Positions 39,798 to 57,796 of a stretch of 64,000 nucleotides of DNA are shown here, in pieces. A program made the translations under genes and the position numbers. The notes below the pieces were generated by a model that saw nothing but the letters and a program-made list of their open reading frames with translations, did not search any database and was not told where the DNA came from. Source of the stretch: a phage; the sequence record PV808484.1, one strand, 5' to 3'. Position 1 is the stretch's first letter. The number at the start of each line of letters is the position of its first letter.

Positions 39798-39811
39798 GGG
39801 GCTTTCGCCCC
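39798..39811 (-). terminator. intergenic GNRA-loop hairpin (attenuator-like) abutting RBS
   Basis: minus-strand RNA GGGGCGAAAGCCCC then UUUUCUUAUAGGAG and ATG. Confidence 0.45.
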
Positions 39812-39821
39812 CTTGGTCAAG

Positions 39822-40634
39822 TTACTTAGTCAAATGATCTTCTATCATTTTTATGAAAGCAGGATTGCTAAAAGCATCTGCTGCCTTTTCTCTATAAACA
39901 AAGACTCCTCTATCTTCGTAAAGAAGAGTTTCTTCGTAATTAATTCCTGGGTTAACAACAATCATTTTTGTACCCATATTAAGTGCAGGGAATAATTCCC
40001 AATTAAAATTGATAACTTGGTTTGAACATCCTACTACAACAACCAAATCTTGCATGGTCAAAGTATCAAACAAGTGAGCCATATCTGCATACAAAGGTGC
40101 AGCCTCACCAAAAAATACAACATTAGGCTTCACCCAGTTATAATCATCTATGTTTATACTATTGTAACCAATGTCTACCAGTGTTTTGTAATCTCCAGGA
40201 TGCATACGGTAAACTACTTCAGGAAGATACCCGTGCACGTGAATAACAGAATCCCTGTCCACACCTGCTCGCTCTAGTAGATCATCAACGTTTGTTGTCA
40301 AGTTTACTACTTGGTTAGGATATTCCTTAAACCACTTTGCTATTTGAATATGTGCAGCATTAGGTTGTACATCTTTAAGCTCAACACGTCTTTTGTTATA
40401 AAATTCGTGTGTTTTGGCATACAAGTCCATACCGTTCTCGTCTACACCACCGACCACTGGAAGATCTGGAGATGTTCTCACACGATAACCTGCTTGGAAA
40501 GCTCCAATATCGCAGACCTCTTCTAAGTCATATTCTTCCCATAAGGCACGACCACTATCTGTGTCTGTTCGGAACGTTCGAATCCCACTGTCTGCACTTA
40601 AACCTGCGCCACTAACAAAAATTACTCTTCGCAT
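39822..40634 (-). CDS. Sir2-family NAD-dependent protein
   Basis: GAGLSADSGIRTFR, TTNVDDL, VHG motifs; no CxxC zinc module seen. Confidence 0.75.
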   Translation of the reverse strand: MRRVIFVSGAGLSADSGIRTFRTDTDSGRALWEEYDLEEVCDIGAFQAGYRVRTSPDLPVVGGVDENGMDLYAKTHEFYNKRRVELKDVQPNAAHIQIAKWFKEYPNQVVNLTTNVDDLLERAGVDRDSVIHVHGYLPEVVYRMHPGDYKTLVDIGYNSINIDDYNWVKPNVVFFGEAAPLYADMAHLFDTLTMQDLVVVVGCSNQVINFNWELFPALNMGTKMIVVNPGINYEETLLYEDRGVFVYREKAADAFSNPAFIKMIEDHLTK

Positions 40635-40645
40635 TCAATATCCTC

Positions 40646-41176
40646 TTAGTAATCATCATCCCAAGAAGATGCGTCGTAACGCTCTTCCTCTTCGAAATCC
40701 CAATTAATTTCTACTCCAAAATCTAAAAACAATTTAACAATGTTTTCTGTAGAGTAGTATTTATCATAAGCATTAGCTAGTTCCCAATACTTGTCACTCA
40801 ATTTTTTATATTTAGGATCATTATAGTCATAATCTACTTTATAACCATAATCATACATCTCTTGTTCAGCTTTAAGCATAGCTTCTGGTGTAAGAAGATT
40901 AGGGAACGGACGATTTCTTTCTTTTAACTTAGAAGCAATCCAGTTTGCAACATTCGCCACTTCACCATCTCGATTATCACCTAAACAACTTGCATAATCT
41001 CCATCTTCGTAAGTGCCTAAATCCCCACTAACTTCATGTACAATAGACGAATACGATCCACACGTTTCACAATCTGAAAAAGTGTCTACTGTTGTAATAT
41101 CAATAGATAAAACTGGTAAAGCCATAGCTTCTTTCACACAAGCCTCCTCATATAATAACATGTCATCAAAACCCAT
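40646..41176 (-). CDS. hypothetical acidic protein
   Basis: start at internal ATG with GGAGGA SD; acidic C-terminus. Confidence 0.5.
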   Translation of the reverse strand: MGFDDMLLYEEACVKEAMALPVLSIDITTVDTFSDCETCGSYSSIVHEVSGDLGTYEDGDYASCLGDNRDGEVANVANWIASKLKERNRPFPNLLTPEAMLKAEQEMYDYGYKVDYDYNDPKYKKLSDKYWELANAYDKYYSTENIVKLFLDFGVEINWDFEEEERYDASSWDDDY

Positions 41177-41230
41177 ATATCCTCCAGACAAATAAAGCCC
41201 CTGTTTGGGGCTTTGGTTAAGTTTTACGGA

Positions 41231-41842
41231 TTATACCAGACTTTTAAGGTACTTGTCAAGGGCTTCTTGATCACCTTGACAAACATAGCAACGGAAGTCT
41301 TGAGCAGAAGGTTCTTTGTCCTCGTCCCAATCCCAATAGACAGTACCTTTATAGCGTGAGCCTGGGAACTCGAAGTATGCCACATGAGTAATATGGTGTG
41401 GGCCACCCCAAAATTCTGTAAAAGTAAATTGAGGATACGCTGCTTTAACTGTATTTTCAAACCAAGTTTTACGATCTAATGCTTCGTTTATAAAATAAGC
41501 ATGGCGTTCCATTTCATCCCAATCTTTCCAAACGCATTTTTCATCCAGAGAAAAAACAAAATCTTCACTGTTAAAATCGTCTGTATCTGATTCCAAAATA
41601 TCATAATCATGTGCACTAGGTATCCACCATCCAGCTTCTAATAGTGCTTTTGCAGGTACAAAACCTTTTTCAGCATATTGATCAAATTCTTTTACTCTAC
41701 GTACAGTGCAGTATTCATCTTCACCACCAATGTCCAGTAGACAAGCACCTTTGCGTCTTGCTGCAAGACCATGTGTATCAAAAACTACAACACTACCTTC
41801 ACCGTCTTCACGATCTACTTGATATGCAACTTTTTGAGTCAT
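41231..41842 (-). CDS. hypothetical protein
   Basis: 203 aa ORF. Confidence 0.55.
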   Translation of the reverse strand: MTQKVAYQVDREDGEGSVVVFDTHGLAARRKGACLLDIGGEDEYCTVRRVKEFDQYAEKGFVPAKALLEAGWWIPSAHDYDILESDTDDFNSEDFVFSLDEKCVWKDWDEMERHAYFINEALDRKTWFENTVKAAYPQFTFTEFWGGPHHITHVAYFEFPGSRYKGTVYWDWDEDKEPSAQDFRCYVCQGDQEALDKYLKSLV

Positions 41843-41965
41843 ATTACCCCCAATGTATATGGGAAATTAACCAAAAGATAAATTCCCAAAAACACCAACC
41901 AAGAAAAGTTAATGGAATTATAAAGGCTATCAGAGCAGTCTTCCAGCCTTTCCACAATGTTTCCA

Positions 41966-42955
41966 CTATTCCTCCATACATTTAAGAATATGTGCAATGA
42001 CAGGTATAGTCCAACCGTTACCTAACATCTTATATGCTTGTGTGTTACTACTCACTTTAAAGTAATCATCTGGCACACCTTGCAAGCGGCAACACTCTTT
42101 AACCGTTAACTTTCTATAATGTACGCCTTCACTCAATTTTTCAAAGGCATCTAGATATCTTCCAGGTGGAATGTAGGCTAATAGTACGTCTTTAGGCACA
42201 GTCGTGAGGCAACGAGTTTTTTCACTGTCCTGAACTTCCAAACAATGTACCAAACGATCAGTTTTAGATGTACTACGTTTGCCATTTTCATTAATTCTAC
42301 GCCCATATATTGCTGCCGGATAAAAAACCAGTTGTCTGCGACTCTTTTCAAAATACTGTTCTATATTACCACCTTTGGCATAATTTGCATCTATGCAATA
42401 AGCCTTATCTCTGTCTACAATACTATCATCTTCAATGATATCTTGCAACACTTCATTGGTAATCTCCCAGGGTTTTATTTCCCAGTTGCACCAGTATAAA
42501 CGTTGTCTATTCTGTGCCGTGAAATCTGCGGAGTTAATGAATACGGGATCAACACCTAAGTAACTTGTGATCACGTTTTCCCACTCCACTTTCATCTTAA
42601 CGTTTTCAAGCATGAACTTAACATTAGGATTAAACTTTTTAATATGTTCAAGAATTTCAACATATTCGAAGAATAGCTTAGATCGCGGATCTTGAAAGTT
42701 CAAACCCTTACCAGAAGAAGAGAAGCCTTGACACGGACTACCACCTAACAAAAGATCAATTTCTCCCCACGGGATATCCCATTCTCTCCATTTTGTAACA
42801 TCACCTAACTGAATAATATCTGGAAAATTTGCTTGGCTTTCAGCTACGGCAAATTTGTCTAATTCTGAAGCGTAATATGTATCTACTTCAATACCTGCAC
42901 TTTTTAGCGCAAGCATTCCTCCTGACATACCATCAAAAAGACTTAAAACTTTCAT
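41966..42955 (-). CDS. dcm: DNA cytosine-5 methyltransferase
   Basis: LFDGMSGG (motif I), GGSPCQGFS (motif IV), MLENV (motif VI). Confidence 0.85.
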   Translation of the reverse strand: MKVLSLFDGMSGGMLALKSAGIEVDTYYASELDKFAVAESQANFPDIIQLGDVTKWREWDIPWGEIDLLLGGSPCQGFSSSGKGLNFQDPRSKLFFEYVEILEHIKKFNPNVKFMLENVKMKVEWENVITSYLGVDPVFINSADFTAQNRQRLYWCNWEIKPWEITNEVLQDIIEDDSIVDRDKAYCIDANYAKGGNIEQYFEKSRRQLVFYPAAIYGRRINENGKRSTSKTDRLVHCLEVQDSEKTRCLTTVPKDVLLAYIPPGRYLDAFEKLSEGVHYRKLTVKECCRLQGVPDDYFKVSSNTQAYKMLGNGWTIPVIAHILKCMEE

Positions 42956-42957
42956 TA

Positions 42958-43368
42958 TTACTTCTTCTCCTTAACACTAGCTGGTAATTCTGCCTTGAGG
43001 CAGAAGTTTAAACGGTAAGCCTCATTCTCATTTAAAAGTACAGATTCACACGATAACCAGAACAAGAGATCCTCAATACCAGGACTGTTAAGCCAACAGT
43101 GCAGAAGAGAATGTTGTTCTATATCAATGTAATTTAGTAACAAGGCTTGTAAGGCGTAACTAGTTCCTGTCGTTTTTGCTTTTTCAAGGATGATATTGTG
43201 TTTACTAACAACTTTCTTCCTAAGACCAAACCATTTATTAACAACAACAGTCTCTTCTTGTAGTTGTTTTCTTATTTTCTCACATTCTTTAACTACAATC
43301 TGCATCTTATCCACTGCTGATTGAAGTTGTTCTTTTGTTGGGTTTACAAAATAATCACTATAATACAT
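42958..43368 (-). CDS. hypothetical protein
   Basis: 136 aa ORF; GAGGAG SD. Confidence 0.55.
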   Translation of the reverse strand: MYYSDYFVNPTKEQLQSAVDKMQIVVKECEKIRKQLQEETVVVNKWFGLRKKVVSKHNIILEKAKTTGTSYALQALLLNYIDIEQHSLLHCWLNSPGIEDLLFWLSCESVLLNENEAYRLNFCLKAELPASVKEKK

Positions 43369-43394
43369 GCTAAACTCCTCTTCTGTTTTTCTGT

Positions 43395-43423
43395 AGTCTA
43401 TTCGAAAAAACTGGTGTTGTCAA
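43395..43423 (-). promoter_or_regulatory. sigma70-like promoter (minus strand)
   Basis: reverse complement reads TTGACA-17-TAGACT. Confidence 0.4.
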
Positions 43424-43450
43424 CAAAAAACCCGCCGAAGCGGGTTTATA
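43423..43450 (-). terminator. rho-independent terminator
   Basis: minus-strand CCCGC-TTCG-GCGGG followed by TTTTTTG. Confidence 0.65.
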
Positions 43451-43708
43451 TTATTCTACAGGAACTTCTTCACCAAGAGAAACTTCTAAACGGAATGCTT
43501 TACTTTCAATACATTCACTACCTTTTAAGAAATCGAATTGCACTATAGACTGACTTAATAGAATAGATAGAATCACATCGCAATCTTCACTAGGGGCTAG
43601 ATGTTTGTATTCTTCCTTCAAGGTAACATCATAAAAACATAAGTCCCCTACTCCTAGTTCATCCCATCCTTCCCATGCATCTACAAAGTTAAATTCTAAA
43701 CCTTTCAT
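43451..43708 (-). CDS. hypothetical protein
   Basis: 85 aa; GAGGAGG SD. Confidence 0.55.
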   Translation of the reverse strand: MKGLEFNFVDAWEGWDELGVGDLCFYDVTLKEEYKHLAPSEDCDVILSILLSQSIVQFDFLKGSECIESKAFRLEVSLGEEVPVE

Positions 43709-44229
43709 ACAACCTCCTCGTAATCGTTATTGTGTTTTACTGTCTCAACATACAATAAAGATTCCATCTGTAATACATTACCAGAAAGAATAAACCCATA
43801 AGCCATTTCAGATGTGTCTATATCATATGCCCCGTCTTCCGGTTTAGCAAAGTGTAAAACTATTTCATCTGGGTTTTCTGCATCCCATAGTTTAGAAATT
43901 TTCCGAACCAGAATGTTAGCTAAAATAGTTGACATTCGGGATAAAGCTGTATCCTCATATCTTTTAAAACCTAGCCAATAGAGGTTAAGAATTTCTACTT
44001 CTTCTTGTGTTAAGTTTTTGTCTAAAGTAATCAGATCTGTAGAGCACGGCGTTTTTGTTGAACCTACTGTTACAAAACCTGGAGTGTTATGAAAAACAAT
44101 CTTAACTTTATCACGTATAAAGTTTAAACCTTGTGCCTCAACTATATATTGTATTGTAGGTACAATATCGTTTGTTACATCAATAAAACTATCTTTAATG
44201 ACGCTTATATTATTTCTGGACAAGACCAT
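43705..44229 (-). CDS. hypothetical protein
   Basis: 174 aa ORF. Confidence 0.55.
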   Translation of the reverse strand: MVLSRNNISVIKDSFIDVTNDIVPTIQYIVEAQGLNFIRDKVKIVFHNTPGFVTVGSTKTPCSTDLITLDKNLTQEEVEILNLYWLGFKRYEDTALSRMSTILANILVRKISKLWDAENPDEIVLHFAKPEDGAYDIDTSEMAYGFILSGNVLQMESLLYVETVKHNNDYEEVV

Positions 44230-44788
44230 TCTCCTCTAAAATAGGCTTAATAAATTCGAAAATTTGTTTTTTACTTTTACCTCGAATATTAAAACAAGGA
44301 ACATTAAACTTTTTAGCCAACATCCAAGCTGTTCTTGTACCACCTAAAGGATCTCCATTTTTATCTGTATTTGCACAAGCTAAAAGAAAACAAGATGGTT
44401 TTGGATTCTCAAGATCTCTTCCAAGAACTTGGTGGATATTTCTTTGATGTAATTTTTTAGCACCTTGAGATAATCTGTCCCAAGCTGGATGCAATTCTTT
44501 TGCATATTGCAAGGTTAGAGCATAGTTTACACTATCTGGTCTGTCAAGAACAATAACCTCTCCCTCTATTTCATTACCTTTAAACGAGAGCCAAGGGATG
44601 TATATTTCTTTCTTTGTATTGTTCCCACTATCATATACCCCGCATTCAAATGCGGAATCTGCACCTTCTGCTTTACCGGATCGCAAAATGAACCATGTAG
44701 ATAACCATTTTGCAACAGATACCATAGTATCCCATTCTTCGTCTGTAATATCTCTGCTACCAACACCTGTGTAGAATAAATCGCTCAT
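44210..44788 (-). CDS. DprA/Smf-like (SLOG-type Rossmann) domain protein
   Basis: start at internal ATG with AAGGAG SD; YTGVGSR, SGKAEGADSAFECG, GGTRTAWMLAKKFNVPCF resemble DprA motifs. Confidence 0.5.
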   Translation of the reverse strand: MSDLFYTGVGSRDITDEEWDTMVSVAKWLSTWFILRSGKAEGADSAFECGVYDSGNNTKKEIYIPWLSFKGNEIEGEVIVLDRPDSVNYALTLQYAKELHPAWDRLSQGAKKLHQRNIHQVLGRDLENPKPSCFLLACANTDKNGDPLGGTRTAWMLAKKFNVPCFNIRGKSKKQIFEFIKPILEENGLVQK

Positions 44789-44798
44789 GGTTTTCTCC

Positions 44799-45119
44799 TT
44801 AACAAGTAATATTGGGAGTAACAATTGGATTAACAATTGGAGTAATAGGGTACGTAAACCAAGGGCTTCCAATTTCCCAAGGATAATAAGGTCTACGAGG
44901 ATCGTATGGAGGAGTTACTTCAGGCTTTTTCCAAATCTCCGCTAATTGTTTCTTCCATTTATCCCTTGCTGTCTCATTATCTTCATCCAACTGTTCATCA
45001 TTATCTTTTATTTCTGGTTTTGGAAATAAAAGCTCTTTGACTAATTCAACATCTTCCGTCTCAATAGTAGTTTCTTTCGTAAGTTCTCCTACTGTTTCTT
45101 TAATTGTGATTTTATACAT
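44799..45119 (-). CDS. hypothetical Pro-rich protein
   Basis: 106 aa; Pro/Thr-rich C-terminus. Confidence 0.5.
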   Translation of the reverse strand: MYKITIKETVGELTKETTIETEDVELVKELLFPKPEIKDNDEQLDEDNETARDKWKKQLAEIWKKPEVTPPYDPRRPYYPWEIGSPWFTYPITPIVNPIVTPNITC

Positions 45120-45862
45120 TAGTCCTCCTCTAAAGTAGAATAAAATTGTAACGTATTTGAATCATCAAAATATGCAAAGGTTAAATTACCATTGAAGCAA
45201 GATCCTGTGTCCATATATACCCTATTACTGCTAATCACAGGTTTAGGAACATAAGAATGCCCGTGAAATACATAATCTACTCCTGAAACCCTAGGAAGAA
45301 GAATTCCTTCAAGTGCGCAATCTATCATATCACGATCCCACATTAAAGATTCTGTGAATCGAGAAACTTGCTCTTTATTCATATTCAAACAAAATGGCAA
45401 AACTTCTGTCACTGGCAAATGTTCCAAAACTGAAGGATACCCACCGTGAATAAAGCCTAGTTTCATATTACGATAATTGACAACAAGTACAACAGGTAAA
45501 TCTTCTAGCATCAAAGCAAGAGCAGTTGCACCCTCTTCTCCACACTCGTCTAGAACTGTATGGCCTCCGTTCTGAAACCAACATTCGTAATATCGTCTAT
45601 CACCTTCTAGCAACCCTTTAATCATCATATCTTCATGGTTCCCACGAATAGCATAACGATTTAGCTTTCTGGTGAATTCAACAACACAACGAAAATTCTG
45701 CTTGCCGCGATCTGTAAGATCTCCTAAAGATACAACAACATCTTGATCTCGGATACCTAAAGTATTAACACCTTTCTGGTACAAATCAAAGCAACCATGT
45801 AAATCACCAATAATAAACAGGTCTTGATCATCTTTTACACTAATTTCTTGATATACTAACAT
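45119..45862 (-). CDS. Ser/Thr protein phosphatase (calcineurin-like)
   Basis: IIGDLHGC, GDLTDRG, RGNHE metallophosphatase motifs; ATG chosen one codon in from TTG. Confidence 0.75.
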   Translation of the reverse strand: MLVYQEISVKDDQDLFIIGDLHGCFDLYQKGVNTLGIRDQDVVVSLGDLTDRGKQNFRCVVEFTRKLNRYAIRGNHEDMMIKGLLEGDRRYYECWFQNGGHTVLDECGEEGATALALMLEDLPVVLVVNYRNMKLGFIHGGYPSVLEHLPVTEVLPFCLNMNKEQVSRFTESLMWDRDMIDCALEGILLPRVSGVDYVFHGHSYVPKPVISSNRVYMDTGSCFNGNLTFAYFDDSNTLQFYSTLEED

Positions 45863-46188
45863 CAACTCTCCTCAAAATCCATAAGTATAAAGATATTAAC
45901 TTTACCTTCTATATTATGTTCTACAACAAGATCTGCAAATTCTTTGTAGGCTTTTTCTTCTATTTGTTCAATGTGAGACGCTACATCTTTGTATATAGCG
46001 TCACCATCTACTTTAACAAGGAGGAATAGAGATCTTACTTCAATCTCTTTATTTTTACGGGGTAGAAAATCGACGGCTTCTTGTATACGCCAGCCGAGAT
46101 ACCCTGGAGTCCTTTGAATATCCTCCAAATGACTTTCTAAGATTTCCCTTCCTTTGTCTATTAAAGCCTGTTCTGTCGTTATTTTCAT
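45862..46188 (-). CDS. hypothetical protein
   Basis: 108 aa ORF. Confidence 0.55.
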   Translation of the reverse strand: MKITTEQALIDKGREILESHLEDIQRTPGYLGWRIQEAVDFLPRKNKEIEVRSLFLLVKVDGDAIYKDVASHIEQIEEKAYKEFADLVVEHNIEGKVNIFILMDFEES

Positions 46189-46198
46189 CCCCTTCTCC

Positions 46199-46771
46199 TT
46201 AATGTGTTAATGAAACTGCGTAGCTAAACACAGGTTCAGATATTACATCGGCTACAGTAATAAAAACGTCTTCGTCTTGAGTTGTTTCTACACGACATAC
46301 AGTTACACCATTCACCACGAATTCAACGCAATGTGGAATATTTTCACAAACGAAGGTAGTGTAAGTAACACCCAAAGCATCATACAAAGATTTAACAGTG
46401 TTTGCAAGTGCCGCAGTTTCTTCTTTTTCTGAGACAATGAATGCTGTAACAACAAGATTGTTTGCATAGTTTAGACTGTCCTCTATAGCCAATGATTTAC
46501 AAGGTAGTAATGCAAAATATTTACCTGGTTTAATCAGACCTGCTTCCCATTGATTCAAAATTGCCTGGGATGGTTTAGTAATATAAAACAGATTTTCACT
46601 TGGGTTATCAATATTACTTCTGGCGATACAACGTGAAGGATTATTAATATCAAACACATGATCAAAATCTACACAAACAGGTAAACTGAAAGGTGTGAAT
46701 TTTTTACCTAATAATCCTATGGCTGATAATATGTTTGCTGTGCTTATCTTCCCGTTAAAAGCTAAACGCAT
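46199..46771 (-). CDS. hypothetical protein
   Basis: 190 aa ORF. Confidence 0.55.
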   Translation of the reverse strand: MRLAFNGKISTANILSAIGLLGKKFTPFSLPVCVDFDHVFDINNPSRCIARSNIDNPSENLFYITKPSQAILNQWEAGLIKPGKYFALLPCKSLAIEDSLNYANNLVVTAFIVSEKEETAALANTVKSLYDALGVTYTTFVCENIPHCVEFVVNGVTVCRVETTQDEDVFITVADVISEPVFSYAVSLTH

Positions 46772-46782
46772 ATTTAACTCCT

Positions 46783-46986
46783 TTAACTAGCAACCGTAAC
46801 TTCCGAACTTTCTTCTTTCGTACTGTCTACGATATGCCTGGTGGCAATATACGAGACTTGCCAGTTACCATCTGGTGTAGTCTCAATAAGTACCCTATCT
46901 ACTTCGAGAAAATGCAAAAATTCAACCATCGCTCGCTTCGATAGGAATTGTTTTTTAACAGTCTCCTCAAAAGATTGAACTGCCAT
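46783..46986 (-). CDS. hypothetical protein
   Basis: 67 aa; GGAGGAAA SD. Confidence 0.5.
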   Translation of the reverse strand: MAVQSFEETVKKQFLSKRAMVEFLHFLEVDRVLIETTPDGNWQVSYIATRHIVDSTKEESSEVTVAS

Positions 46987-46995
46987 GTTTCCTCC

Positions 46996-47658: not shown

Positions 47659-47715
47659 AATACCCTCCTGTTCTGTTACAGGAAGTATGCACTACCTTAA
47701 TGTTAAAGTCAACAG

Positions 47716-49090: not shown

Positions 49091-49105
49091 ATCTCCTCCT
49101 AATAA

Positions 49106-49120: not shown

Positions 49121-49131
49121 TTTATACTAGA

Positions 49132-50276: not shown

Positions 50277-50312
50277 TTAACCTCCATAACAGGCATCCTT
50301 GCCTTGTAATTA

Positions 50313-51065: not shown

Positions 51066-51084
51066 GTTTGCACTCCTTATAAAA

Positions 51085-51098
51085 GGGGCTTTCGCCCC
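51085..51098 (-). terminator. intergenic GNRA-loop hairpin (attenuator-like) abutting RBS
   Basis: minus-strand RNA GGGGCGAAAGCCCC then UUUUAUAAGGAG and phoH ATG; identical to 39798 element. Confidence 0.45.
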
Positions 51099-51103
51099 TT
51101 TGT

Positions 51104-51604
51104 TTAGTTATAAGCGTCTAATGTTCCAGTTTTAAGTACCTGAATTACACGCTCTGCGCGATTAGGCGTTTGGCGATACCATTTACTTTTACGTAAATTT
51201 ATAGAGGCTTGAGTATAATATGAATTACTCACTAAAGTCAAGCTATTTTTGAAAGATTCTGCACCTTTCAATCCCATTTGAAATACCATATTAATAATAG
51301 CCATTTTACGATTAGGACTTACTTTATCGTAAATAGGAGATAATATGGTACTTGAATGGATTTGTTGTATCGCTTTCTTTACGTCACTCTCAAAGATTTT
51401 TCTAGCTTCCGCTTCAGTAATAACTCCATTGGTTTTTCTACCTACTAAGTTATCAAGAATGCGTATAGCTTCTGCTTTATCTTTGCGTTTTGTCAGAAGG
51501 TGTCCAATACCAACTGTCCAATACCCTTCGGTATCAGGATATACAGTTAGCTTTAGTCCTTCATCAAAACGTAACATATCAAACACATCAACTACCTTAG
51601 CCAT
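51104..51604 (-). CDS. T4-type lysozyme (endolysin)
   Basis: MLRFDEGLKLTVYPDTEGYWTVGIGHLL and NMVFQMG close to T4 lysozyme. Confidence 0.9.
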   Translation of the reverse strand: MAKVVDVFDMLRFDEGLKLTVYPDTEGYWTVGIGHLLTKRKDKAEAIRILDNLVGRKTNGVITEAEARKIFESDVKKAIQQIHSSTILSPIYDKVSPNRKMAIINMVFQMGLKGAESFKNSLTLVSNSYYTQASINLRKSKWYRQTPNRAERVIQVLKTGTLDAYN

Positions 51605-51616
51605 GTTTTCCTTATA

Positions 51617-51760
51617 TCAGTCGCCCTCCCCATGATCTAGCTCTTGAAACAGTAGGTGTTCAGGAGACATTTCACGTTTAGGCTTCGTCTTTTTAGTTTG
51701 GGACTTAAGCTCTGTTGCCAAAGCACGAGAAAAGATCTTACGTTTCTGTTTACCTTTCAT
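51617..51760 (-). CDS. small basic protein (47 aa)
   Basis: hand-translated MKGKQKRKIFSRALATELKSQTKKTKPKREMSPEHLLFQELDHGEGD; GGAG SD. Confidence 0.35.
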   Translation of the reverse strand: MKGKQKRKIFSRALATELKSQTKKTKPKREMSPEHLLFQELDHGEGD

Positions 51761-51764
51761 ATTG

Positions 51765-52025
51765 TTACTCCGCAATCTGAGCCATGAATTCACGTAGTTC
51801 AGAAAAACCTCCTACGTGGGTTAGCTGTTCACCATCTTCCACAAAAATCTGAGGAAATGTGCGTGGTAGAACACCTGTTTTCTCTAAAACCAGATTCTGA
51901 ATCTGATCTAAAGAATAGTCTTCATCTAAGGTAAGGTATTTAAAATCCTGTTCACGCTGTTCTAGTAGAATCTTAGCGTTAGTGCAGAAAGGACAATTTG
52001 GTTTACCGTAGATAATAAAATTCAT
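51765..52025 (-). CDS. glutaredoxin-like protein
   Basis: CPFC active site; start set to ATG (MNFIIYGKPNCPFC) with AAGGAG SD. Confidence 0.8.
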   Translation of the reverse strand: MNFIIYGKPNCPFCTNAKILLEQREQDFKYLTLDEDYSLDQIQNLVLEKTGVLPRTFPQIFVEDGEQLTHVGGFSELREFMAQIAE

Positions 52026-52027
52026 TT

Positions 52028-52858
52028 TCACTCCTTGTTTAAAAGTATAGTTAAAGTTCTTACAATACCGCTATCAACACTTCGCGGATTTAAAGTAGGA
52101 TCTGTTTTTAAATAAGATGTTGCTGGTCTGACTGCTTTGGAATTATAGGTTGAAGCAGACACAGGATTAACTGTAACAGATAAATCTATAACAAGAAATA
52201 TCTTTCGTGCAAAATCATACCAAGAAATATAATCTGCACCTGCATAGTGTACAATTTTACTATTTACACCATCTTTTACAAGTTTAAAAATTGTTTCTGC
52301 AAGATCAGGTGCATAAGTAGGACATGATAAATGATCACATACTACATTAAATTCTTTTTGACCACCGTTGTAGCGTTCCAACATAGTTTTCAAAAAGTTA
52401 TGTCCAAATTCACTATAAACAGAAGCTGTTCTGATAATAAGTGCTGTAGGACAAACTGTTTGTACTAAAGTTTCACCTAATTGTTTACTGTAACCGTAGG
52501 TGTTCAAGGGGTTTGTTTTACTATCTTCTGTGCCAGCAACATGCCCATCAAAAACATAGTCTGTTGAAATATGTACAAACTGTATCAGTAAATCATTACA
52601 TGCTTTGGCAATGTTTGTTGCACCGTATGCATTAACATTTATACAGGTGTTAACATCTTCTTCAGCTTTATCTACTGCCGTGTAAGCCGCACAATTCACA
52701 ACAACATCAGGCACATGCTGTACAAGACTATTCATAACATCTTTAAAGTTGGTAATGTCTATATCACTTGCTTCAATCAAAACAACATCTTCTGGTGCAA
52801 CTTTTGCCAAAGATTGTCCTAATTGACCTTTTGATCCAAAGACTAAAAATTTTGTCAA
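52028..52858 (-). CDS. rmlD: dTDP-4-dehydrorhamnose reductase (probable TTG start)
   Basis: N-terminal FGSKGQLGQ Rossmann motif; typical RmlD length; AAGGAG SD. Confidence 0.8.
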   Translation of the reverse strand: MTKFLVFGSKGQLGQSLAKVAPEDVVLIEASDIDITNFKDVMNSLVQHVPDVVVNCAAYTAVDKAEEDVNTCINVNAYGATNIAKACNDLLIQFVHISTDYVFDGHVAGTEDSKTNPLNTYGYSKQLGETLVQTVCPTALIIRTASVYSEFGHNFLKTMLERYNGGQKEFNVVCDHLSCPTYAPDLAETIFKLVKDGVNSKIVHYAGADYISWYDFARKIFLVIDLSVTVNPVSASTYNSKAVRPATSYLKTDPTLNPRSVDSGIVRTLTILLNKE

Positions 52859-53409
52859 AGTATGATCTCCTTTAGTGTTTTTGCTTCCTGATCTTTTTGT
52901 GACAAGATAGGTTTAAAATTAATATCATTAAAGATTAAATCAAAACCCCAATCTATATTGATATCTGGATCATTCCACGCAAGACTACATTCTGAAGTCG
53001 GATCGTAATATTCTGTACATTTATATTCAAAATCAGCAATATCGCTAATCACAACAAAGCCATGAGCGAAACCAGGAGGAATCCAAAATTGTGTTTTATT
53101 CTTTTCAGATAAGAGAACACCTACCCATTCTCCAAATGTTGGACTACCAACCCTAATATCTACAGCAACATCATAAACTTCACCACGAACACAGCGTACT
53201 AACTTCCCTTGTGGGTTTTTCTTTTGAAAATGAAGCCCACGTAGAACTCCTCGGATAGAACGTGAATGGTTATCTTGGACAAAGTTTTGTTTACCTATGT
53301 ATTGATCATATAAAGCCTGATTAAAACTTTCTAAGAAAAAGCCACGTTCATCTCCGTAAACGTCAGGTTGAATGATCAACAAATCTTCGATTTTTGTTGC
53401 TTGAATCAT
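52855..53409 (-). CDS. rmlC: dTDP-4-dehydrorhamnose 3,5-epimerase
   Basis: GDERGFFLESF, RGLHFQ and cupin-type motifs. Confidence 0.85.
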   Translation of the reverse strand: MIQATKIEDLLIIQPDVYGDERGFFLESFNQALYDQYIGKQNFVQDNHSRSIRGVLRGLHFQKKNPQGKLVRCVRGEVYDVAVDIRVGSPTFGEWVGVLLSEKNKTQFWIPPGFAHGFVVISDIADFEYKCTEYYDPTSECSLAWNDPDINIDWGFDLIFNDINFKPILSQKDQEAKTLKEIIL

Positions 53410-53421
53410 TTAATTCCCCTT

Positions 53422-54291
53422 TTATTTTAATTTAAGTAAATACTTACCGTAGTCTGTTTTACTTAAAACCTCTCCAGAACTTTTTACAGAGTCTAAAGTA
53501 ATCCATTCATTTTTAAAAGCAATCTCTTCCAGGCATGCAACCTTCATACCTTGTTGCTTCTCTATTGCATGAACAAATTGAGATGCTTCCATAAGACTTT
53601 CATGTGTTCCTGTATCCAGCCAAGTGAAACCTCTTCCTAGCTTACAGACACGTAAAGCCTTTTCTTTCCAGTACATCTCATTTATATCTGTGATCTCTAA
53701 CTCCCCTCTAGCAGAAGGCTTAACGCTTTTAGCTTTCTGTATAACAGAATTATCGTAAAAGTACAAGCCTGTAATTGCATAGTTGCTTTTTGGTGCTTTT
53801 GGTTTTTCTTCAATACTTACTACTGTACCTTCAGAATCAAACTCAACAACACCAAATCTTTCAGGATCATTTACGTGATACCCAAAAATATTAGCTCCAC
53901 CATTCTTTTCAATATGTTCTCTAGCAGAATCTAAAATGCTACCAAAACTCTGACCAAAGAATAAATTATCACCTAGAACAAGTGCTACAGAATCTTCACC
54001 AATAAAGCTCTCACCAATAATAAACGCTTCTGCTAAACCTTTTGGGCTGTCCTGTATTGCATACTGTAGGGAAACACCAAAAGAAGAACCATCACCTAGA
54101 AGATTTACAAAATTAATTTGATCTTCTGGTGTTGTAATTATTAGTATTTCCCTAATTCCAGAAAGCATTAGGACAGAGAGTGGATAATAAATCATAGGTT
54201 TATCGTAAATTGGTAATAGTTGTTTACTAACCCCTTTAGTAACTGGGTAAAGTCTTGTCCCACTACCACCCGCTAAGATAATACCTTTCAT
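53422..54291 (-). CDS. rmlA: glucose-1-phosphate thymidylyltransferase
   Basis: [18 protein letters not shown]...[16 protein letters not shown]. Confidence 0.9.
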
Positions 54292-54299
54292 ACTCCTCC

Positions 54300-55289
54300 T
54301 TAAACTTTATTTTCCCACCACTCTTTGTTATCTACATACCAATCAATGGTTGAATAAAGTTTTTCTTCAAATGTGCCTTTAGCTTTCCACCCTAATTCCT
54401 TTTCAATCTTATAAGGATTCACTTCATATCTTAAATCATGCCCAGGTCTATCTGTAACCATCTCAATGAGGCTACAAGCATCTGTTTCAGATGGATATAC
54501 CGCATCCATATAATCACAAATCATATAGATTACATCAATATTAGTTCTAGGGTTTCTGCTCCCAATATTATATGTCTCTCCAGATTTGCCTTTAGTTACT
54601 ACCAGGTGTAATGCTTCTGCGTGATCATCAACGTATAGCCAATCTCTTACTTGAAGACCATCGCCATAAACAGGGATTGGTTTATTCATTAAGATATTTG
54701 TTATCGTCTTAGGTATTAGTTTTTCTGGATGATGATATGCTCCAAAATTATTTGAACAATTTGTTATAACTGTCGGAATACCATAAGTACGATGCCACGC
54801 TCTTACCAAATGATCGCTTGCAGCTTTAGATGCAGCATATGGACTACTTGGTTTATAAGGATTCTGTTCTGTAAACGGATAATCCCCTTCTTCCATATCA
54901 CCATACACTTCATCTGTTGAAATATGATGGAACATTTTAAGATTTGATTTATCTCCCATTAAACGAACAGCTTCTAGAAGATTAAATGTTCCAACAATAT
55001 TTGAATTTATAAAAACACTCGGTGATGCTATTGAATTATCTACGTGACTCTCTGCTGCAAGATGCATTATATAATCTGGATTAACATCTGCCACAATCTT
55101 AGCAGTTAACTGCGCATTTGTCAAGTCAACACGACAAAACTTTACATTAGGTGTTTCTGATAAATTTCTAGGGTCTGAAGCGTAACCCCATTTATCTATA
55201 ACGTAAATATCATTCTTAGTATTTTTAGCTAGGAAACGAACTACCGCACTTCCAATAAAGCCTAAACCACCTGTTACTAAGTATTTCAT
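54300..55289 (-). CDS. rmlB: dTDP-glucose 4,6-dehydratase
   Basis: TGGLGFIGS Rossmann motif, YAASKAASD catalytic YxxxK. Confidence 0.9.
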
Positions 55290-55483
55290 TTAGTCTCCTT
55301 CCAATTATTACCTTCAGTAAAAATAATACCTTCATAAAACAACCATCTGGAACCTTTTTCAACAGGAACAGGAAGCTCTTCTTCAGTAAAGTTATAAACC
55401 TCTCTAGCATCTTCTAAAAGTGATGCAAATGTTTTTGGACTTACTGTTACGCGAGGAGCATTGATCAATTGATCTAGCATCAT
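55286..55483 (-). CDS. hypothetical protein
   Basis: start at internal ATG with AAGGAGG SD. Confidence 0.45.
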   Translation of the reverse strand: MMLDQLINAPRVTVSPKTFASLLEDAREVYNFTEEELPVPVEKGSRWLFYEGIIFTEGNNWKETK

Positions 55484-55496
55484 TCTACTATCCTCC

Positions 55497-55823
55497 TTAC
55501 CAAACGTGTTGAGAAATAATAGTTTCCGTTTCAATGTTATATTTTTCAAGAAGTTGTGCATAGGCTTCTTTTGCATTTTTATTTAGTTGCTCAAGATCTA
55601 CAGCTACACTTCCTTCGCCACCTTCTAAATAAATGCCATATATGCAATAAGATTCATCAGCGTCATAGAAAGGTGAGATACGGCTTAAATCAAGACCTTC
55701 TTGTAAGAACCAATTAAAATCTCCATCAAATTCTTCTTCAATTCTAGGATCTTCTCCTACAGCCTCTTCCCATTTATTAAAAGGTGCACCCTGTAACATA
55801 CGCCATTCAGTGTCAACTCCCAT
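55497..55823 (-). CDS. hypothetical acidic protein
   Basis: 108 aa ORF. Confidence 0.5.
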   Translation of the reverse strand: MGVDTEWRMLQGAPFNKWEEAVGEDPRIEEEFDGDFNWFLQEGLDLSRISPFYDADESYCIYGIYLEGGEGSVAVDLEQLNKNAKEAYAQLLEKYNIETETIISQHVW

Positions 55824-55953
55824 TATCTTCCTCTTCTTCTTCCGTGTGAACGAAGCCTAAACCGTTACAATTCCAACACGGAATAAATTGTTCCATACTA
55901 ACAATAAAATTCCCAGTACCACCGCAGATAGGACAAATACTTACATCATCCAT
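55813..55953 (-). CDS. small zinc-ribbon protein (46 aa)
   Basis: hand-translated MDDVSICPICGGTGNFIVSMEQFIPCWNCNGLGFVHTEEEEEDNGS; GAGGAG SD. Confidence 0.4.
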   Translation of the reverse strand: MDDVSICPICGGTGNFIVSMEQFIPCWNCNGLGFVHTEEEEEDNGS

Positions 55954-55955
55954 TA

Positions 55956-56138
55956 TTAAAGCTCCTCAATCTTTTCTAACATCTGTTTTAACTCATTCTC
56001 TGTTAACAGAATTTCTGTGATACCATCATAAGTTTCTACCATCAGAGTAAAACATTTTTCTCCATCTGAACACACAAAAGCACCACCTTCATCTTCTGTT
56101 AAGTCAGAATTAATATCCACATCAACAAAATCAATCAT
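55956..56138 (-). CDS. hypothetical acidic protein
   Basis: start at ATG (MIDFVDV) with AAGGAG SD. Confidence 0.45.
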   Translation of the reverse strand: MIDFVDVDINSDLTEDEGGAFVCSDGEKCFTLMVETYDGITEILLTENELKQMLEKIEEL

Positions 56139-56349
56139 CTTTTTCTCCTTTGATAATTTCAAACTTGGCTACACCATTAACTATAATGTGACCGCAAGAC
56201 ATAACCCCTAGCCAATGATCACCATTCTTTTTTAAACGTTTACCGTAAACATCACAGAAACCATTCTGTAATTCGGAAGCCTCATAAGAGGCTCCCTTTT
56301 CGAAAACGTCTTTGAAGTCAGAAATTAATCCAACACAAAGTAGTTTCAT
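56131..56349 (-). CDS. hypothetical protein
   Basis: 72 aa; ATG overlaps nrdB stop. Confidence 0.5.
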   Translation of the reverse strand: MKLLCVGLISDFKDVFEKGASYEASELQNGFCDVYGKRLKKNGDHWLGVMSCGHIIVNGVAKFEIIKGEKDD

Positions 56350-57434
56350 TAAAAGTCTAACTCCTCGTCATCACTTACATCTTTATTTGCTGAATTCAGT
56401 TTGTAAGCTGTAATTTGGATCTCCTGTGCTGCTGCTTGAATTTGATCTGGATTTAACCAAACATCCATCCAAGGCAGTGGACTTTTCTTCGGTGCACGGA
56501 ATTTGTGTTTCATTTTCAGTCTGCGATAGATAGGCGCGGCATTGAAGTAAACCCAAAGTTTGAACAACTCTGCGTTACCACCAACGATAACCCTTCCTTC
56601 ACTAAACAGATAGTCACACCAATCTTCCTCTTGTCCAACTACCGTATCAAGAATTTCTGTCAGAACGTCGATATTGTCTTCGTATACTTTTCTCCAGACA
56701 GGATCTTTCAGCAGTGCATCAATAATAGCATAATCCATTTTAACGTGCAATAGTTCATCCAACATAATTTTTTGAATGAGTTTAGCTGCACCTACAAACA
56801 GTTGCTGCTCTGCTAAGGCAAATGTTGCAGCAAAAGATGATATGAATTGAATGCCTTCCAGACCGATAAGTGCAATCATTCCTTTCAGAATCAGTAGACG
56901 AAGGTTATCATCCTTCTCAATCAGACCTAGAGCATATTTATGTCCTGCCTCTGCCAGATCACTCATTATCTCTTCAACTATACCCATCCTCTGGAAGATT
57001 CTTTCGTTCTCCATAATCTGATCGATAACTTCATTTGGATTAGGGATACACTGACGAATAATTTCAGAATATGTCAAAGCGTGTAAAACTTCCATTTCTG
57101 ATTGCTTCATCATCATTGCACATGCTTCGTTGTTGCTTAAAAATGGTGCAAACAAAGTGATGATTGATTTAGCAAGTGAATCATTTTCCCATTGGAAGGA
57201 TAGGTTTTTGATCATAACATCATAGTTGCTTTTAGAACAAGCTACGAAATCTTTTCGTGTCTGATCTAAGTTTACTTCGTTTTCATCCCAATCTTGCTGT
57301 TTTTGTAGTTTGTACAGACGATGCATTTCTGGGTATGTTACATTAATAGAATCAAAAATACCTAACTGTTCTCCCAAAAATACAGGGTAGAAACCTTCTT
57401 TGTAAGTGTCGTTGTATAAGTTAATTGCTGCCAT
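56349..57434 (-). CDS. nrdB: ribonucleotide reductase class Ia small subunit
   Basis: 361 aa; diiron/tyrosyl-radical subunit pattern; adjacent to nrdA. Confidence 0.9.
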   Translation of the reverse strand: MAAINLYNDTYKEGFYPVFLGEQLGIFDSINVTYPEMHRLYKLQKQQDWDENEVNLDQTRKDFVACSKSNYDVMIKNLSFQWENDSLAKSIITLFAPFLSNNEACAMMMKQSEMEVLHALTYSEIIRQCIPNPNEVIDQIMENERIFQRMGIVEEIMSDLAEAGHKYALGLIEKDDNLRLLILKGMIALIGLEGIQFISSFAATFALAEQQLFVGAAKLIQKIMLDELLHVKMDYAIIDALLKDPVWRKVYEDNIDVLTEILDTVVGQEEDWCDYLFSEGRVIVGGNAELFKLWVYFNAAPIYRRLKMKHKFRAPKKSPLPWMDVWLNPDQIQAAAQEIQITAYKLNSANKDVSDDEELDF

Positions 57435-57756
57435 TTAAATCCTCCACAATATCACACATTGCTTTTATTGTATCAATGTGTTCTCTCTCCATACCATCCT
57501 CTAGGTAAGCCTTCTCTAATGCGTCCCATACACTCTTTGTGAGTAGTATAGTAACCTCTCCCTCATACCTTGCTCTGGTTAAAGCATACCAGGTAGCTAT
57601 GGGATCATTGGAAGCCCATATTTCAACACTGGAAAATTGAAAACCTGCAATATAATGACAACACCAATCGAATGTAAAATCTTTACTATCTACCAGTGTA
57701 TAATTTCCCCAGCGTCTTTGTGGTGTTGCCCCAGGTAATACAACTAATGTAGGCAT
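57421..57756 (-). CDS. hypothetical protein
   Basis: start at internal ATG (MPTLVVLP) with AAGGAGG SD just after hairpin. Confidence 0.5.
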   Translation of the reverse strand: MPTLVVLPGATPQRRWGNYTLVDSKDFTFDWCCHYIAGFQFSSVEIWASNDPIATWYALTRARYEGEVTILLTKSVWDALEKAYLEDGMEREHIDTIKAMCDIVEDLNGSN

Positions 57757-57772
57757 ATTCCTCCTTAAGAAA

Positions 57773-57788
57773 GGGGGACAAAGCCCCC
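57773..57788 (-). terminator. intergenic hairpin abutting RBS
   Basis: GGGGG-ACAAAG-CCCCC between nrdA stop and next SD. Confidence 0.4.
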
Positions 57789-57796
57789 TAGTTTCA

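Follow-up and report, generated by a model that had tools for sequence, protein, structure and literature searches.

What do the short hairpins do that stand between the end of one gene and the ribosome-binding site of the next in the minus-strand cluster of this phage? The window, that is, the whole stretch of 64,000 nucleotides analysed here, comes from a phi92-like coliphage (Justusliebigvirus) and is collinear with phage EmilieFrey. A preliminary description had placed five such hairpins in the minus-strand operon, and all five are indeed present (SD, Shine-Dalgarno sequence):

39795-39814, minus strand (Sir2 junction; 14-nt core 39798-39811): terminator-type hairpin AAGGGGGC-GAAA-GCCCCUUU between a sirtuin-family gene (39822-40634) and the last cluster gene (39520-39777); mRNA AAGGGGGC-GAAA-GCCCCUUUU-CUUAU-AGGAG-N6-AUG
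39784-39797, minus strand: U-rich tail UUUUCUUAU (39789-39797), then directly SD AGGAG (39784-39788) of gene 39520-39777
49104-49122, minus strand (element 49107): hairpin between an HslV-like gene (49132-49785) and gene 48662-49090; mRNA AACCCCCU-CAA-GGGGGGUU-AUU-AGGAGGAG-AU-AUG, with SD AGGAGGAG at 49093-49100
51082-51101, minus strand (PhoH junction; core 51085-51098): terminator-type hairpin AAAGGGGC-GAAA-GCCCCUUU, conserved in relatives, between an endolysin gene (51104-51604) and a PhoH-like gene (50313-51065); mRNA AAAGGGGC-GAAA-GCCCCUUUU-AU-AAGGAG-N7-AUG
51073-51084, minus strand: U4 (51081-51084), AU, then SD AAGGAG (51073-51078) of the PhoH-like gene
57772-57789, minus strand (NrdA junction, element 57774): weak hairpin between nrdA (57797-60058) and a small gene (57421-57756) preceding nrdB; mRNA AGGGGG-CUUUGU-CCCCCU-UUCUU-AAGGAGG-AAU-AUG, with SD AAGGAGG at 57760-57766
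60763-60781, minus strand (element 60770): leader hairpin AGGAGAGC-UAU-GCUCUCCU without U-tract, tail UAAAAGAG, between thyA (60839-61810) and gene 60331-60741; mRNA AGGAGAGC-UAU-GCUCUCCU-UAAAAGAGAGA-AGGAG, with SD AAGGAG about 11 nt downstream of the hairpin

It is hardly credible that these are chance palindromes without function in spacers rich in G and C runs. Intergenic DNA has an 8-fold higher density of sense-strand hairpins (at least 5 bp, dG of -8 or below) than coding DNA (5.55 versus 0.67 per kb), which places the five beyond chance. Every minus-cluster gap of at least 36 nt contains a hairpin (10 of 10, among 44 junctions in all), and the remaining gaps measure 13 nt or less. The sequence GGGGCGAAAGCCCC matches exactly at 39798-39811 and 51085-51098, both on the minus strand, and has a relative with two mismatches at 57774-57787; these three matches in the window compare with 0.03 expected from shuffles, and the two exact copies are identical over 18 nt (GGGGCGAAAGCCCCTTTT). 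On the side of chance, 57774 folds no better than its dinucleotide shuffles (z = -0.40) and the shuffles of 60770 (z = -1.34) and 49107 (z = -1.58) fold nearly as well, the scores spanning -0.4 to -4.85 over the hairpins; this test is weak for G5/C5 runs, however, because dinucleotide shuffles preserve the runs. The conservation data, with kept positions and compensatory changes, already contradict a chance origin.

The hairpins are therefore real and conserved. They are ordinary phage gene-boundary signals, most of them probably terminator hairpins, plus one or two promoter-proximal leader hairpins, and hairpins between phage genes are an already known kind of element. Those of the terminator type consist of a 5-8 bp G/C stem, a hyper-stable tetraloop in the mRNA sense only and then a U-rich tail; throughout Stephanstirmvirinae they keep their position, stem and tail. 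At three orthologous junctions (Sir2, endolysin/PhoH and NrdA) the GGGGC/GCCCC stem is invariant in the relatives carrying it and the loops swap among the stable tetraloops GAAA, GUAA, GCAA, UUCG and UACG. At four terminator-type junctions, GNRA or UNCG loops are found in 15 of 24 distinct hairpins when read in the mRNA sense and in 1 of 24 in antisense, with 4.7% expected for random tetraloops. Orthologues at the Sir2 junction read GGGGC-(GAAA/UUCG/UACG)-GCCCC. The PhoH junction has an invariant stem in every relative carrying the hairpin and a GAAA, GUAA, GCAA, UUCG, UUU or UAGC loop; relative L014 retains the gene pair with a 9-nt gap and no hairpin. At the NrdA junction, relatives have GGGGC-GAAA-GCCCC-UUUAUUUUU, AAGGGC-UUCG-GCCCUUUUU, or unrelated stems with U-tracts at the same position, and a hairpin with U-tract after nrdA stays in place, with unrelated stems, down to 34-35% NrdA identity. 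The 57774 element is a degenerate version of the one at 39798 and 51085. The earlier label of GNRA-loop hairpins fits two of the five loops (GAAA at 39798 and 51085) and fails for the other three. The structure of 49107 is also kept across relatives, 4 of its 8 pairs showing compensatory changes and 89% of pairs being formed versus 34-66% in slid controls; its orthologues are mostly GCCCC-UUCG-GGGGC with a U-rich tail.

One point against the terminator reading is that the GGGGC stem is invariant while the 49107 family covaries freely, which a simple stability requirement does not explain.

Judged by its sequence and spread, the GGGGC-GAAA-GCCCC hairpin is a generic element. In Klebsiella phage KP13-26 the gene beyond the Sir2 hairpin, GGGGCGAAAGCCCC-UUUUCUUUUAUUU, is convergent, so that the hairpin ends a transcription unit. 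The 18-mer AAGGGGCGAAAGCCCCTT has exact matches in at least 120 viral contigs, which derive from numerous samples; among the matches listed, at least 4 T stand in the next 6 nt in 77 of 120, and an SD-like motif lies within 22 nt in 37 of 120, with none in 83.

Terminator strength was estimated by a d-score of the d'Aubenton-Carafa type, used with modern energy parameters. Obligatory-stop terminators in the window score +14 to +40, the 38 hairpins in coding regions all fall below zero (maximum -21.7), and the following element served as internal positive control:

39423-39452, not assigned to one strand: bidirectional terminator at the convergent junction closing the minus-strand cluster; d-score +26.3

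On this scale 39798 (+23.7) and 51085 (+15.0) resemble the phage's own unit-end terminators, 57774 (-8.9) and 49107 (-10.1) are slightly negative, and 60770 reaches -27.3 with only 2 U in the 8 nt of its tail. We give a probability of about 60% to the reading that most of the elements are leaky intrinsic (Rho-independent) terminator hairpins for the host RNA polymerase, with 60770 as a leader and 49107 as an intermediate. Partial termination, as proposed earlier, is the best reading for 39798 and 51085 and, more weakly, for 57774, given their unit-end-like anatomy and scores and the KP13-26 case; it does not apply to 60770, and 49107 is borderline. The argument from the U-tract is weak: "only four U" is no evidence of weakness at 39798, because its UUUUCUU tail is identical to those of the unit-end terminators 12047 and 39043. 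Nor does AAGGAG directly follow U4 there, the SD being UAGGAG, 9 nt past the stem.

The proximity of the stop codon is a better argument for leakiness than U-tract length. The stems begin 2-9 nt past the stop codon (2 nt at PhoH and 7 nt at Sir2, in all relatives), within the footprint of a terminating ribosome, where ribosomes suppress termination in published assays: the efficiency of lambda tR2 is about 90% with a translated stop codon 28 bp away and drops to less than 10% when the distance is 5 bp (PMC4824070). The hairpins are packed into the 36-44 nt from the stop codon to the SD of the next gene. With the stem so close to the stop codon, the ribosome finishing the upstream gene would occlude the 5' arm of the stem, and termination would occur mainly when translation lags transcription. 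Such leaky elements would reduce, but not stop, the transcription that reaches PhoH, the nrdB group and the last gene. Read-through past 39798, 51085 and 57774 is required, since no conserved promoter was found in the relatives between or just upstream of these hairpins and the next conserved gene. Leaky phage terminators tuning expression have been measured in LUZ7 and, according to the same paper, likewise in T7 (PMC9163698). RNAs formed there by termination or processing would carry a tetraloop hairpin as their 3' terminus, an expected obstacle to 3' exonucleases.

One would argue that the effect is purely post-transcriptional, a view that we regard as rather unlikely. The polymerase would then read through, and the hairpins would block 3'-to-5' exonucleases and/or mark RNase E cleavage in the AU-rich spacer, setting distinct half-lives for upstream and downstream segments of the polycistronic mRNA. 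In its favor stand hyper-stable tetraloops specific to the mRNA sense; it was in T4 mRNA that UUCG hairpins were first seen (PMC4371310); 60763 and a further hairpin at 62972 have no U-tract at all; and most relatives have at the PhoH junction only UU and then an A-rich tail, poor for termination, which ribosomes should suppress anyway with a stop 2-9 nt from the stem (PMC4824070). However, a stabiliser needs no U-tract, and U-rich tails are kept at the Sir2 and NrdA junctions, even with unrelated stems in distant relatives; T-runs follow most listed copies of the 18-mer elsewhere; and an identical hairpin ends the KP13-26 transcription unit.

The five elements had been treated as alike, and they are not one class: 60770 lacks a U-tract and follows a conserved promoter. 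Other hairpins and promoters of the cluster are relevant here:

60793-60821, minus strand: conserved sigma70-like promoter TTGACT-17-TAGTAT, predicted start about 4-5 nt upstream of hairpin 60763-60781
49148-49176, minus strand: candidate sigma70-like promoter TTGACA-17-TAAAGT (with TG) within the 3'-terminal part of the HslV-like gene
41194-41214, minus strand: terminator-like hairpin AAAGCCCC-AAACA-GGGGCUUU, then AUUUGU; d-score +10.2
43428-43447, minus strand: terminator AAACCCGC-UUCG-GCGGGUUU plus UUUG; d-score +29.6
47664-47685, minus strand: hairpin CUUCCUGU-AACAGA-ACAGGAGG, predicted to sequester the SD of a recombinase gene (46996-47658)
50291-50304, minus strand: small hairpin AGGCA-AGGA-UGCCU between the PhoH-like gene and gene 49785-50276; conserved motif GGCA(A/G)GGA(N)GCC
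62972-62991, minus strand: hairpin CGCUCCC-ACAAAC-GGGAGCG without U-tract, the SD of the thymidine kinase gene (62394-62957) following 5 nt downstream; d-score -23, shuffle z = -4.85

At 60793-60821 both hexamers are conserved, as TTGACT-17-TA(G/A)(T/G)AT, in relatives with 61-72% ThyA identity, and they suggest a transcription start upstream of the hairpin. Because of this predicted start and the missing U-tract, 60770 is classed as a leader hairpin rather than a terminator; most likely it would act as a 5' stabiliser and/or SD-accessibility element. Across relatives it varies by compensatory changes and its 5' arm stays purine-rich. The promoter match at 49148-49176 would place hairpin 49104-49122 at about +19 of a transcript, but its status is uncertain because no conservation was found in the relatives compared outside Justusliebigvirus; as a terminator, 49107 is borderline, intermediate between the terminator type and the 60770 leader type.

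Such promoters raise the question of composite promoter/stem-loop cassettes (PeSLs), in which the hairpins would be leader hairpins or attenuators that double as gene-shuffling recombination sites. PeSLs have been described in T4-like phages, where the stem-loop may take any of several places around the promoter (PMC2839356, PMC4122927), and conserved sigma70-like promoters adjoin hairpins 60763, 47664, 41194 and 43428. A consensus promoter (41230-41259, TTGACA-18-TATAAT plus TG) has its predicted start about 9 nt ahead of the hairpin at 41194, and relative L033 retains both; the terminator at 43428 is immediately followed by promoter TTGACA-17-TAGACT (43395-43423), a classical terminator-promoter junction inside the minus cluster; and the 5' arm of 47664-47685 overlaps the -10 of a conserved promoter (47684-47712). 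About 17 promoter-hairpin-SD cassettes also occur in the plus-strand early region. As a general explanation this is nevertheless improbable: no such conserved promoter was found at 39798, 51085 and 57774 and that of 49107 is not conserved beyond the genus, the copies are identical over the 18-20 nt hairpin only and not over a cassette of about 100 bp, and hairpin junctions show no excess of synteny breaks (10/10 versus 30/34, Fisher p = 0.56).

Even less probable is a role at the level of translation, in which a rigid stem standing 2-10 nt before the SD would shield the ribosome-binding site from the coding sequence upstream, or else act as a decoy or a standby platform. In its favor, a short and rather uniform distance separates stem and SD (2-10 nt in most cases), and hairpin 47664 sequesters its own SD. 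Among the elements, 60770 fits this idea best: its arms mimic SD and anti-SD, and its 3' arm (CUCUCCU) can alternatively pair with the true SD AAGGAGA. Against it, L014 keeps the PhoH gene pair without the hairpin, KP13-26 has the same hairpin without a following gene, and most listed copies of the 18-mer have no SD nearby.

How do these elements compare with known systems? Stabilising 5'-terminal stem-loops, such as that of the ompA leader, were reportedly described by Emory, Bouvet and Belasco in 1992; 60770 and the early plus-strand cassettes are similar in having a hairpin a few nt from the predicted 5' end and no U-tract, and differ in that the 60770-type start is predicted from promoter hexamers only. 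Stable C(UUCG)G hairpins at intercistronic positions of T4 mRNA are said to have been found by Tuerk et al. in 1988. Both their T4 mRNA origin and their stability are documented (PMC4371310), and the present elements share hyper-stable, C-G-closed tetraloops in phage intergenic spacers, with interchangeable classes of stable loops. For the T4 hairpins the function was left open (folding nucleation, stability or termination), whereas here U-tails and use at unit ends point to termination.

PeSLs combine an intergenic sigma70-like promoter, a stem-loop of a G-run and a C-run that acts as terminator or attenuator of upstream transcription, and an SD (PMC2839356, PMC4122927), which fits 60770, 41194, 43428 and the early plus-strand cassettes. 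Unlike PeSLs, the three GGGGC-type elements have no adjacent promoter, their repeats do not extend beyond the hairpin, the analysis detected no connection with gene shuffling, and the phage belongs to a different subfamily. The ribosome-repressed terminators of the lambda tR2 series, and the pyrBI attenuator cited with them, likewise have a stem about 10 nt or less from a translated stop, a range over which the terminating ribosome blocks hairpin folding (PMC4824070); that series is an engineered reporter, whereas the present spacing is natural and conserved (PhoH and Sir2) and its effect is deduced. From the intrinsic terminators and attenuators of E. coli and phages (T7, LUZ7; PMC9163698) our elements, read from sequence alone, differ in their short tails, with 4 U and then mixed bases running into the next SD, or only 2 U in most relatives at the PhoH junction. 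They share with them the short G/C stem, the GNRA or UUCG tetraloop, the U-rich tail of the transcribed strand, the position just past the stop codon and the required read-through into downstream genes.

The hairpins flagged in the minus-strand gene cluster 39520-64000 are real, conserved and functional-looking, but elements of this kind are well known; they do not reveal a new mechanism, and the result is mainly one of annotation. The region 39000-58000 has 98.9% nucleotide identity to Escherichia phage EmilieFrey (MZ501063) and about 55 further records, and all 153 of the 153 EmilieFrey coding sequences were placed on the window without any shift (window = record - 64000). By these sequence comparisons the phage is a phi92-like coliphage of the Stephanstirmvirinae, genus Justusliebigvirus. 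Records deposited as Campylobacter jejuni phages (MG065639, MG065645, MG065656 and MG065650) have 98% identity to this coliphage lineage, or about 79% in the case of B15, which matches Phapecoctavirus; their host labels look doubtful on that comparison. The cluster encodes thymidine kinase, ThyA, NrdA/NrdB, four dTDP-rhamnose enzymes and glutaredoxin, together with endolysin, PhoH, an HslV-like protein, methyltransferases, a recombinase, a phosphatase and a sirtuin. This 25-kb "operon" of phi92-like phages is better regarded as a chain of units, broken up by terminator-type hairpins, four to six in number, and by no fewer than five sigma70-like promoters. Neither promoters nor hairpins are annotated in the EmilieFrey record or at the endolysin/PhoH junction of the phi92 record, the one junction checked there, where the annotation consists of the ribosome-binding site alone; the phAPEC8 record has two ARNold terminators in all, both at other junctions. 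Rfam 15 gave no match at or above any family's gathering score in the whole window, a tRNA scan of the window found none, and a Pfam search with the genes downstream of the hairpins gave no functional clue. A literature search found no transcriptome or termination assay for Stephanstirmvirinae and no paper in which the 14-mer hairpin core is printed.

Flagged hairpins of the minus-strand cluster, with d-score (terminator discriminant) and number of U among the 8 nt that follow the G/C core
39798, minus strand, Sir2 junction: d-score +23.7, U 6/8
51085, minus strand, endolysin/PhoH junction: d-score +15.0, U 5/8
57774, minus strand, NrdA junction: d-score -8.9, U 5/8
49107, minus strand, junction of the HslV-like gene and 48662-49090: d-score -10.1, U 4/8
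60770, minus strand, junction of thyA and 60331-60741: d-score -27.3, U 2/8
Unit-end controls: convergent junction 39423-39452; 39043; 12047; 23967; 25125

The preliminary description reported identical elements at two sites, and indeed GGGGCGAAAGCCCC is found exactly at 39798-39811 and 51085-51098 (both minus strand), the exact identity of the two copies covering 18 nt. Counting the two-mismatch site at 57774, the window holds three matches against 0.03 expected. The other hairpins (49107, 57774, 60770) are as described, small corrections aside, while the GNRA loops are present in two of the five hairpins and missing from the remaining three, and the order of hairpin, U4 and AAGGAG fails at 39798, where the spacer is UUUUCUUAU followed by UAGGAG. 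All five stems have 6-8 bp and a dG of -9.9 to -13.4 kcal/mol, and the flagged intergenic elements begin 2-9 nt after the stop codon, with the exception of 60770 (57 nt). Gaps of at least 36 nt occur at 10 of the 44 junctions of the cluster and every one of them contains a hairpin; the gaps at the other 34 are at most 13 nt. Over the whole window the density of sense-strand hairpins (stem of at least 5 bp, dG of -8 or lower) is 5.55/kb in intergenic against 0.67/kb in coding DNA. Dinucleotide-shuffle z-scores for single elements were uninformative for the G5/C5 hairpins, because such shuffling preserves the runs. Two hairpin G-runs of the window are one G longer than in other Justusliebigviruses, namely G5 against G4 at 39798 (39807-39812) and G6 against G5 at 49107 (49106-49111); either the homopolymers truly differ in length or the extra G is a sequencing artefact.

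The hairpins were scored with a discriminant of the d'Aubenton-Carafa type with presumed constants, and therefore the scores were also set against internal controls: the unit-end terminators, where transcription must stop, range from +14 to +40, and each of 38 coding-region hairpins scores -21.7 or lower. On this scale, with its presumed constants, 39798 and 51085 are terminators, and so are two hairpins that the preliminary description did not list, 43428 (+29.6), which is directly followed by a TTGACA promoter, and 41194 (+10.2). The hairpins at 57774 and 49107 are borderline, and no terminator is seen in those at 60770, 62972 and 47664. A U-tract is present at 39798 and 51085, borderline at 57774 and 49107, and missing at 60770. 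The presence of "only four U" had been taken as a sign of weakness, but the tail UUUUCUU of 39798 is also that of the unit-end terminators 12047 and 39043; therefore, it is by itself no indication of a weak terminator. One 20-nt UUCG terminator, AAACCCGCTTCGGCGGGTTT, exists in three copies, at 12049-12068 (plus), 39043-39062 (plus) and 43428-43447 (minus), of which the two plus-strand copies have 25 contiguous nt in common, through TTTTCTTG. The stretch 41194-41259 (minus) combines a promoter that matches the consensus perfectly (TTGACA-18-TATAAT with TG), lies within the 3' end of gene 41231-41842 and is kept in relatives with the terminator-like hairpin of +10.2, about 9 nt past the predicted start; such an arrangement would yield an RNA of about 40 nt or a strongly attenuated leader.

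Orthologous junctions were extracted from Klebsiella phage KP13-26, from phAPEC8 and from 34 IMG/VR loci that surround PhoH, NrdA and Sir2. The GGGGC/GCCCC stem is invariant at the Sir2, endolysin/PhoH and NrdA junctions of relatives with 60-88% flanking-protein identity, and covariation is not measurable at these elements because the stem never varies. The loops on this stem are exchanged among GAAA, GUAA, GCAA, UUCG, UACG, UUCA, UUU and UAGC. Read in mRNA sense, 15 of 24 distinct hairpins from the four terminator-type junctions carry GNRA or UNCG loops, compared to 1 of 24 in the antisense reading and 4.7% expected for random tetraloops. Therefore, the terminator-type hairpins are selected as sense-strand RNA for stability and not for a particular loop sequence. 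An antisense terminator at 51082-51101, which also matches on the plus strand, was rejected as the main role, since the stable tetraloops are confined to the mRNA sense. The gene that follows the Sir2 hairpin of KP13-26, GGGGCGAAAGCCCC-UUUUCUUUUAUUU, is convergent, so that this hairpin is the last element of its unit and ends the transcription unit there. After nrdA, phages at a greater distance (identity falling from 75% to 34%) have a hairpin with a clear U-tract in the same place and built on unrelated stems, and in two of them a Shine-Dalgarno sequence (SD) immediately follows the U-tract. At the PhoH junction most relatives have only UU after the stem, and in one locus (L014) the hairpin is absent and the gap is 9 nt, which shows that the phage can do without it. 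The 49107 family does covary, with double changes in 4 of 8 pairs and 89% of cells paired against 34-66% in slid controls, a count that leans towards structure as the MAFFT alignment was re-anchored on the loop.

The hairpin is also generic. The exact 18-mer AAGGGGCGAAAGCCCCTT was found in at least 120 viral contig stretches from many different samples; among the matches listed, a stop codon typically lies just upstream, at least four T follow within the next 6 nt in 77 of 120, and 37 of 120 have an SD-like motif no more than 22 nt away. Terminator hairpins abutting the ribosome-binding site of the next gene are therefore common in phages.

For 39798, 51085 and 57774, the compared relatives showed no conserved promoter, neither shortly before the hairpin nor in the space to the next conserved gene; therefore, the downstream genes depend on read-through. 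Two candidates were rejected: TTGACC adjoining 39798 lacks a -10 to go with it and is missing in relatives, and the promoter at 49148-49176 is not kept outside the genus. The distance from stop codon to stem is 2 nt at the PhoH junction and 7 nt at the Sir2 junction in all relatives, and 4-8 nt at the NrdA junction. In the work of Li et al., a position a few bp from a translated stop codon repressed lambda tR2 almost completely, its efficiency being about 90% at 28 bp and below 10% at 5 bp, and the repression was lost once translation was uncoupled (PMC4824070). By analogy, terminators of the 39798, 51085 and 57774 type would mainly stop polymerases that run ahead of their ribosome and let the others pass. 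Measurements on phage LUZ7 revealed graded, leaky internal terminators, which according to that paper were also shown in T7 (PMC9163698). The claim of partial terminators is thus supported for three of the five hairpins (39798, 51085, 57774) through the need for read-through and the stop-codon spacing; 49107 is borderline, and 60770, with no U-tract, drops out. This support rests on grounds other than those first proposed. A purely post-transcriptional role of the hairpins as stabilisers stays a serious rival because of the weak U-tails in most relatives at the PhoH junction.

The GGGGC stem is invariant across genera, in contrast to the free covariation of 49107, and the stop spacing is fixed at 2 and 7 nt. 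For these reasons it could be, although we consider it very unlikely, that the GGGGC hairpins are switchable terminators, controlled by how near the ribosome is or by a phage-encoded antiterminator or RNA-binding factor recognising the stem; they would stop transcription early in infection and permit read-through later. If so, the 25-kb nucleotide-metabolism and replication cluster would be split into temporal classes. The hairpin junctions themselves are a natural test set for stop-codon proximity versus terminator leakiness, and the 14-nt core hairpins with their different tails are concrete, compact parts for phage engineering.

The hairpin at 60770 had been grouped with the GGGGC elements, from which it differs by the missing U-tract and by its position after a conserved promoter. 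Its stem lies 11 nt past the -10 of TTGACT-17-TAGTAT, both hexamers of which are kept in relatives at 61-72% ThyA identity, and with a start predicted some 7 nt beyond the -10, 4-5 nt ahead of the stem would be unpaired. The arms change in a compensatory way (GGGAGAGC/GCUCUCC, GGGAGGA/UCCUCCC, GAGAGGGA/UCCCUCUC), the 5' arm staying purine-rich and the 3' arm pyrimidine-rich, a family that we describe qualitatively as two sequences are misregistered in its alignment. The 3' arm could alternatively pair with the true SD. The best reading of the element is that of a 5' leader hairpin that would act as a stabiliser, control access to the SD, or both. In KP13-26 (L003) the insertion of an additional 423-nt ORF at 24140-24562 separates the thymidylate synthase gene from the conserved promoter and leader hairpin, and leaves these two intact.

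Several other non-coding features were observed. A small hairpin at 50291-50304 (minus), in the junction of PhoH and 49785-50276, combines conservation in the loop with covariation in the stem: GGCA(A/G)GGA(N)GCC is found in all relatives, to about 50-60% protein identity, its outer pairs vary between A-U, U-A and G-C, and GGC/GCC changes to AGC/GCU. The conservation of the SD-like loop (AGGGA/AAGGA) suggests sequence-specific recognition. Dense Fur-box-like arrays occupy plus-strand non-coding DNA at 14074-14176, 25356-25434, 26297-26321 and 26494-26516, where TGATAATCATT(C/A)TC occurs nine times at up to one mismatch (0.12 expected). The E. coli Fur 19-mer consensus has five matches at up to three mismatches (0.03 expected), the best of them being GCAAATGATAATCATTATC at 26297-26315. 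The arrays could be iron/Fur-regulated phage promoters, or could titrate host Fur on replicating phage DNA. Three 79-nt direct repeats at 13834-14054 (plus; start-to-start 67 and 75 nt, 72-73% identity) lie in 1.3 kb of poorly coding DNA that is locally richer in G+C and also contains two small opposite-strand ORFs.

Promoter-early stem-loop (PeSL) cassettes were described in T4-like phages (PMC2839356, PMC4122927). A sigma70-like promoter in the same cassette is present at 60770 (conserved), possibly at 49107 (a genus-specific match), and absent at 39798, 51085 and 57774. PeSLs are repeated motifs of about 100 bp, whereas the identity of 39798 and 51085 stops at the 18-20 nt of the hairpin. 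As to a link with insertion, deletion or replacement of neighbouring genes, synteny breaks relative to the compared phages occur at 10 of 10 hairpin junctions and 30 of 34 others (Fisher p = 0.56), a weak test confounded by fast-evolving small genes, since these drop out of tblastn. The PeSL model does not suit the three GGGGC elements, which have no adjacent promoter, hairpin-length identity only and no enrichment of synteny breaks. At 47664-47712 (minus) the -10 of a conserved promoter, TTGAC(A/T)-17-CATACT, overlaps the 5' arm of an SD-sequestering hairpin of the recombinase gene 46996-47658, so that the SD would be closed in read-through transcripts and open in promoter-initiated ones, the same logic as in T4 gene e (PMC3014915). 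On the plus strand, about 17 intergenic cassettes in the early region 15077-24419 are built much like 60770, from TTGACA-N17-TAAGAT/TATAAT, a spacer of about 10 nt, a G/C hairpin (GGCGGGAAA-UGG-UUUCCCGCC, or GGGCGGCA-AUAG-UGCCGCUC in three identical copies) and then an SD; none has a U-tract, the d-scores are -24 to -54, and each early mRNA would begin with a strong 5' hairpin. These early cassettes share the repeated conserved motif of about 100 bp, and it is they that resemble the PeSL cassettes of T4-like phages.
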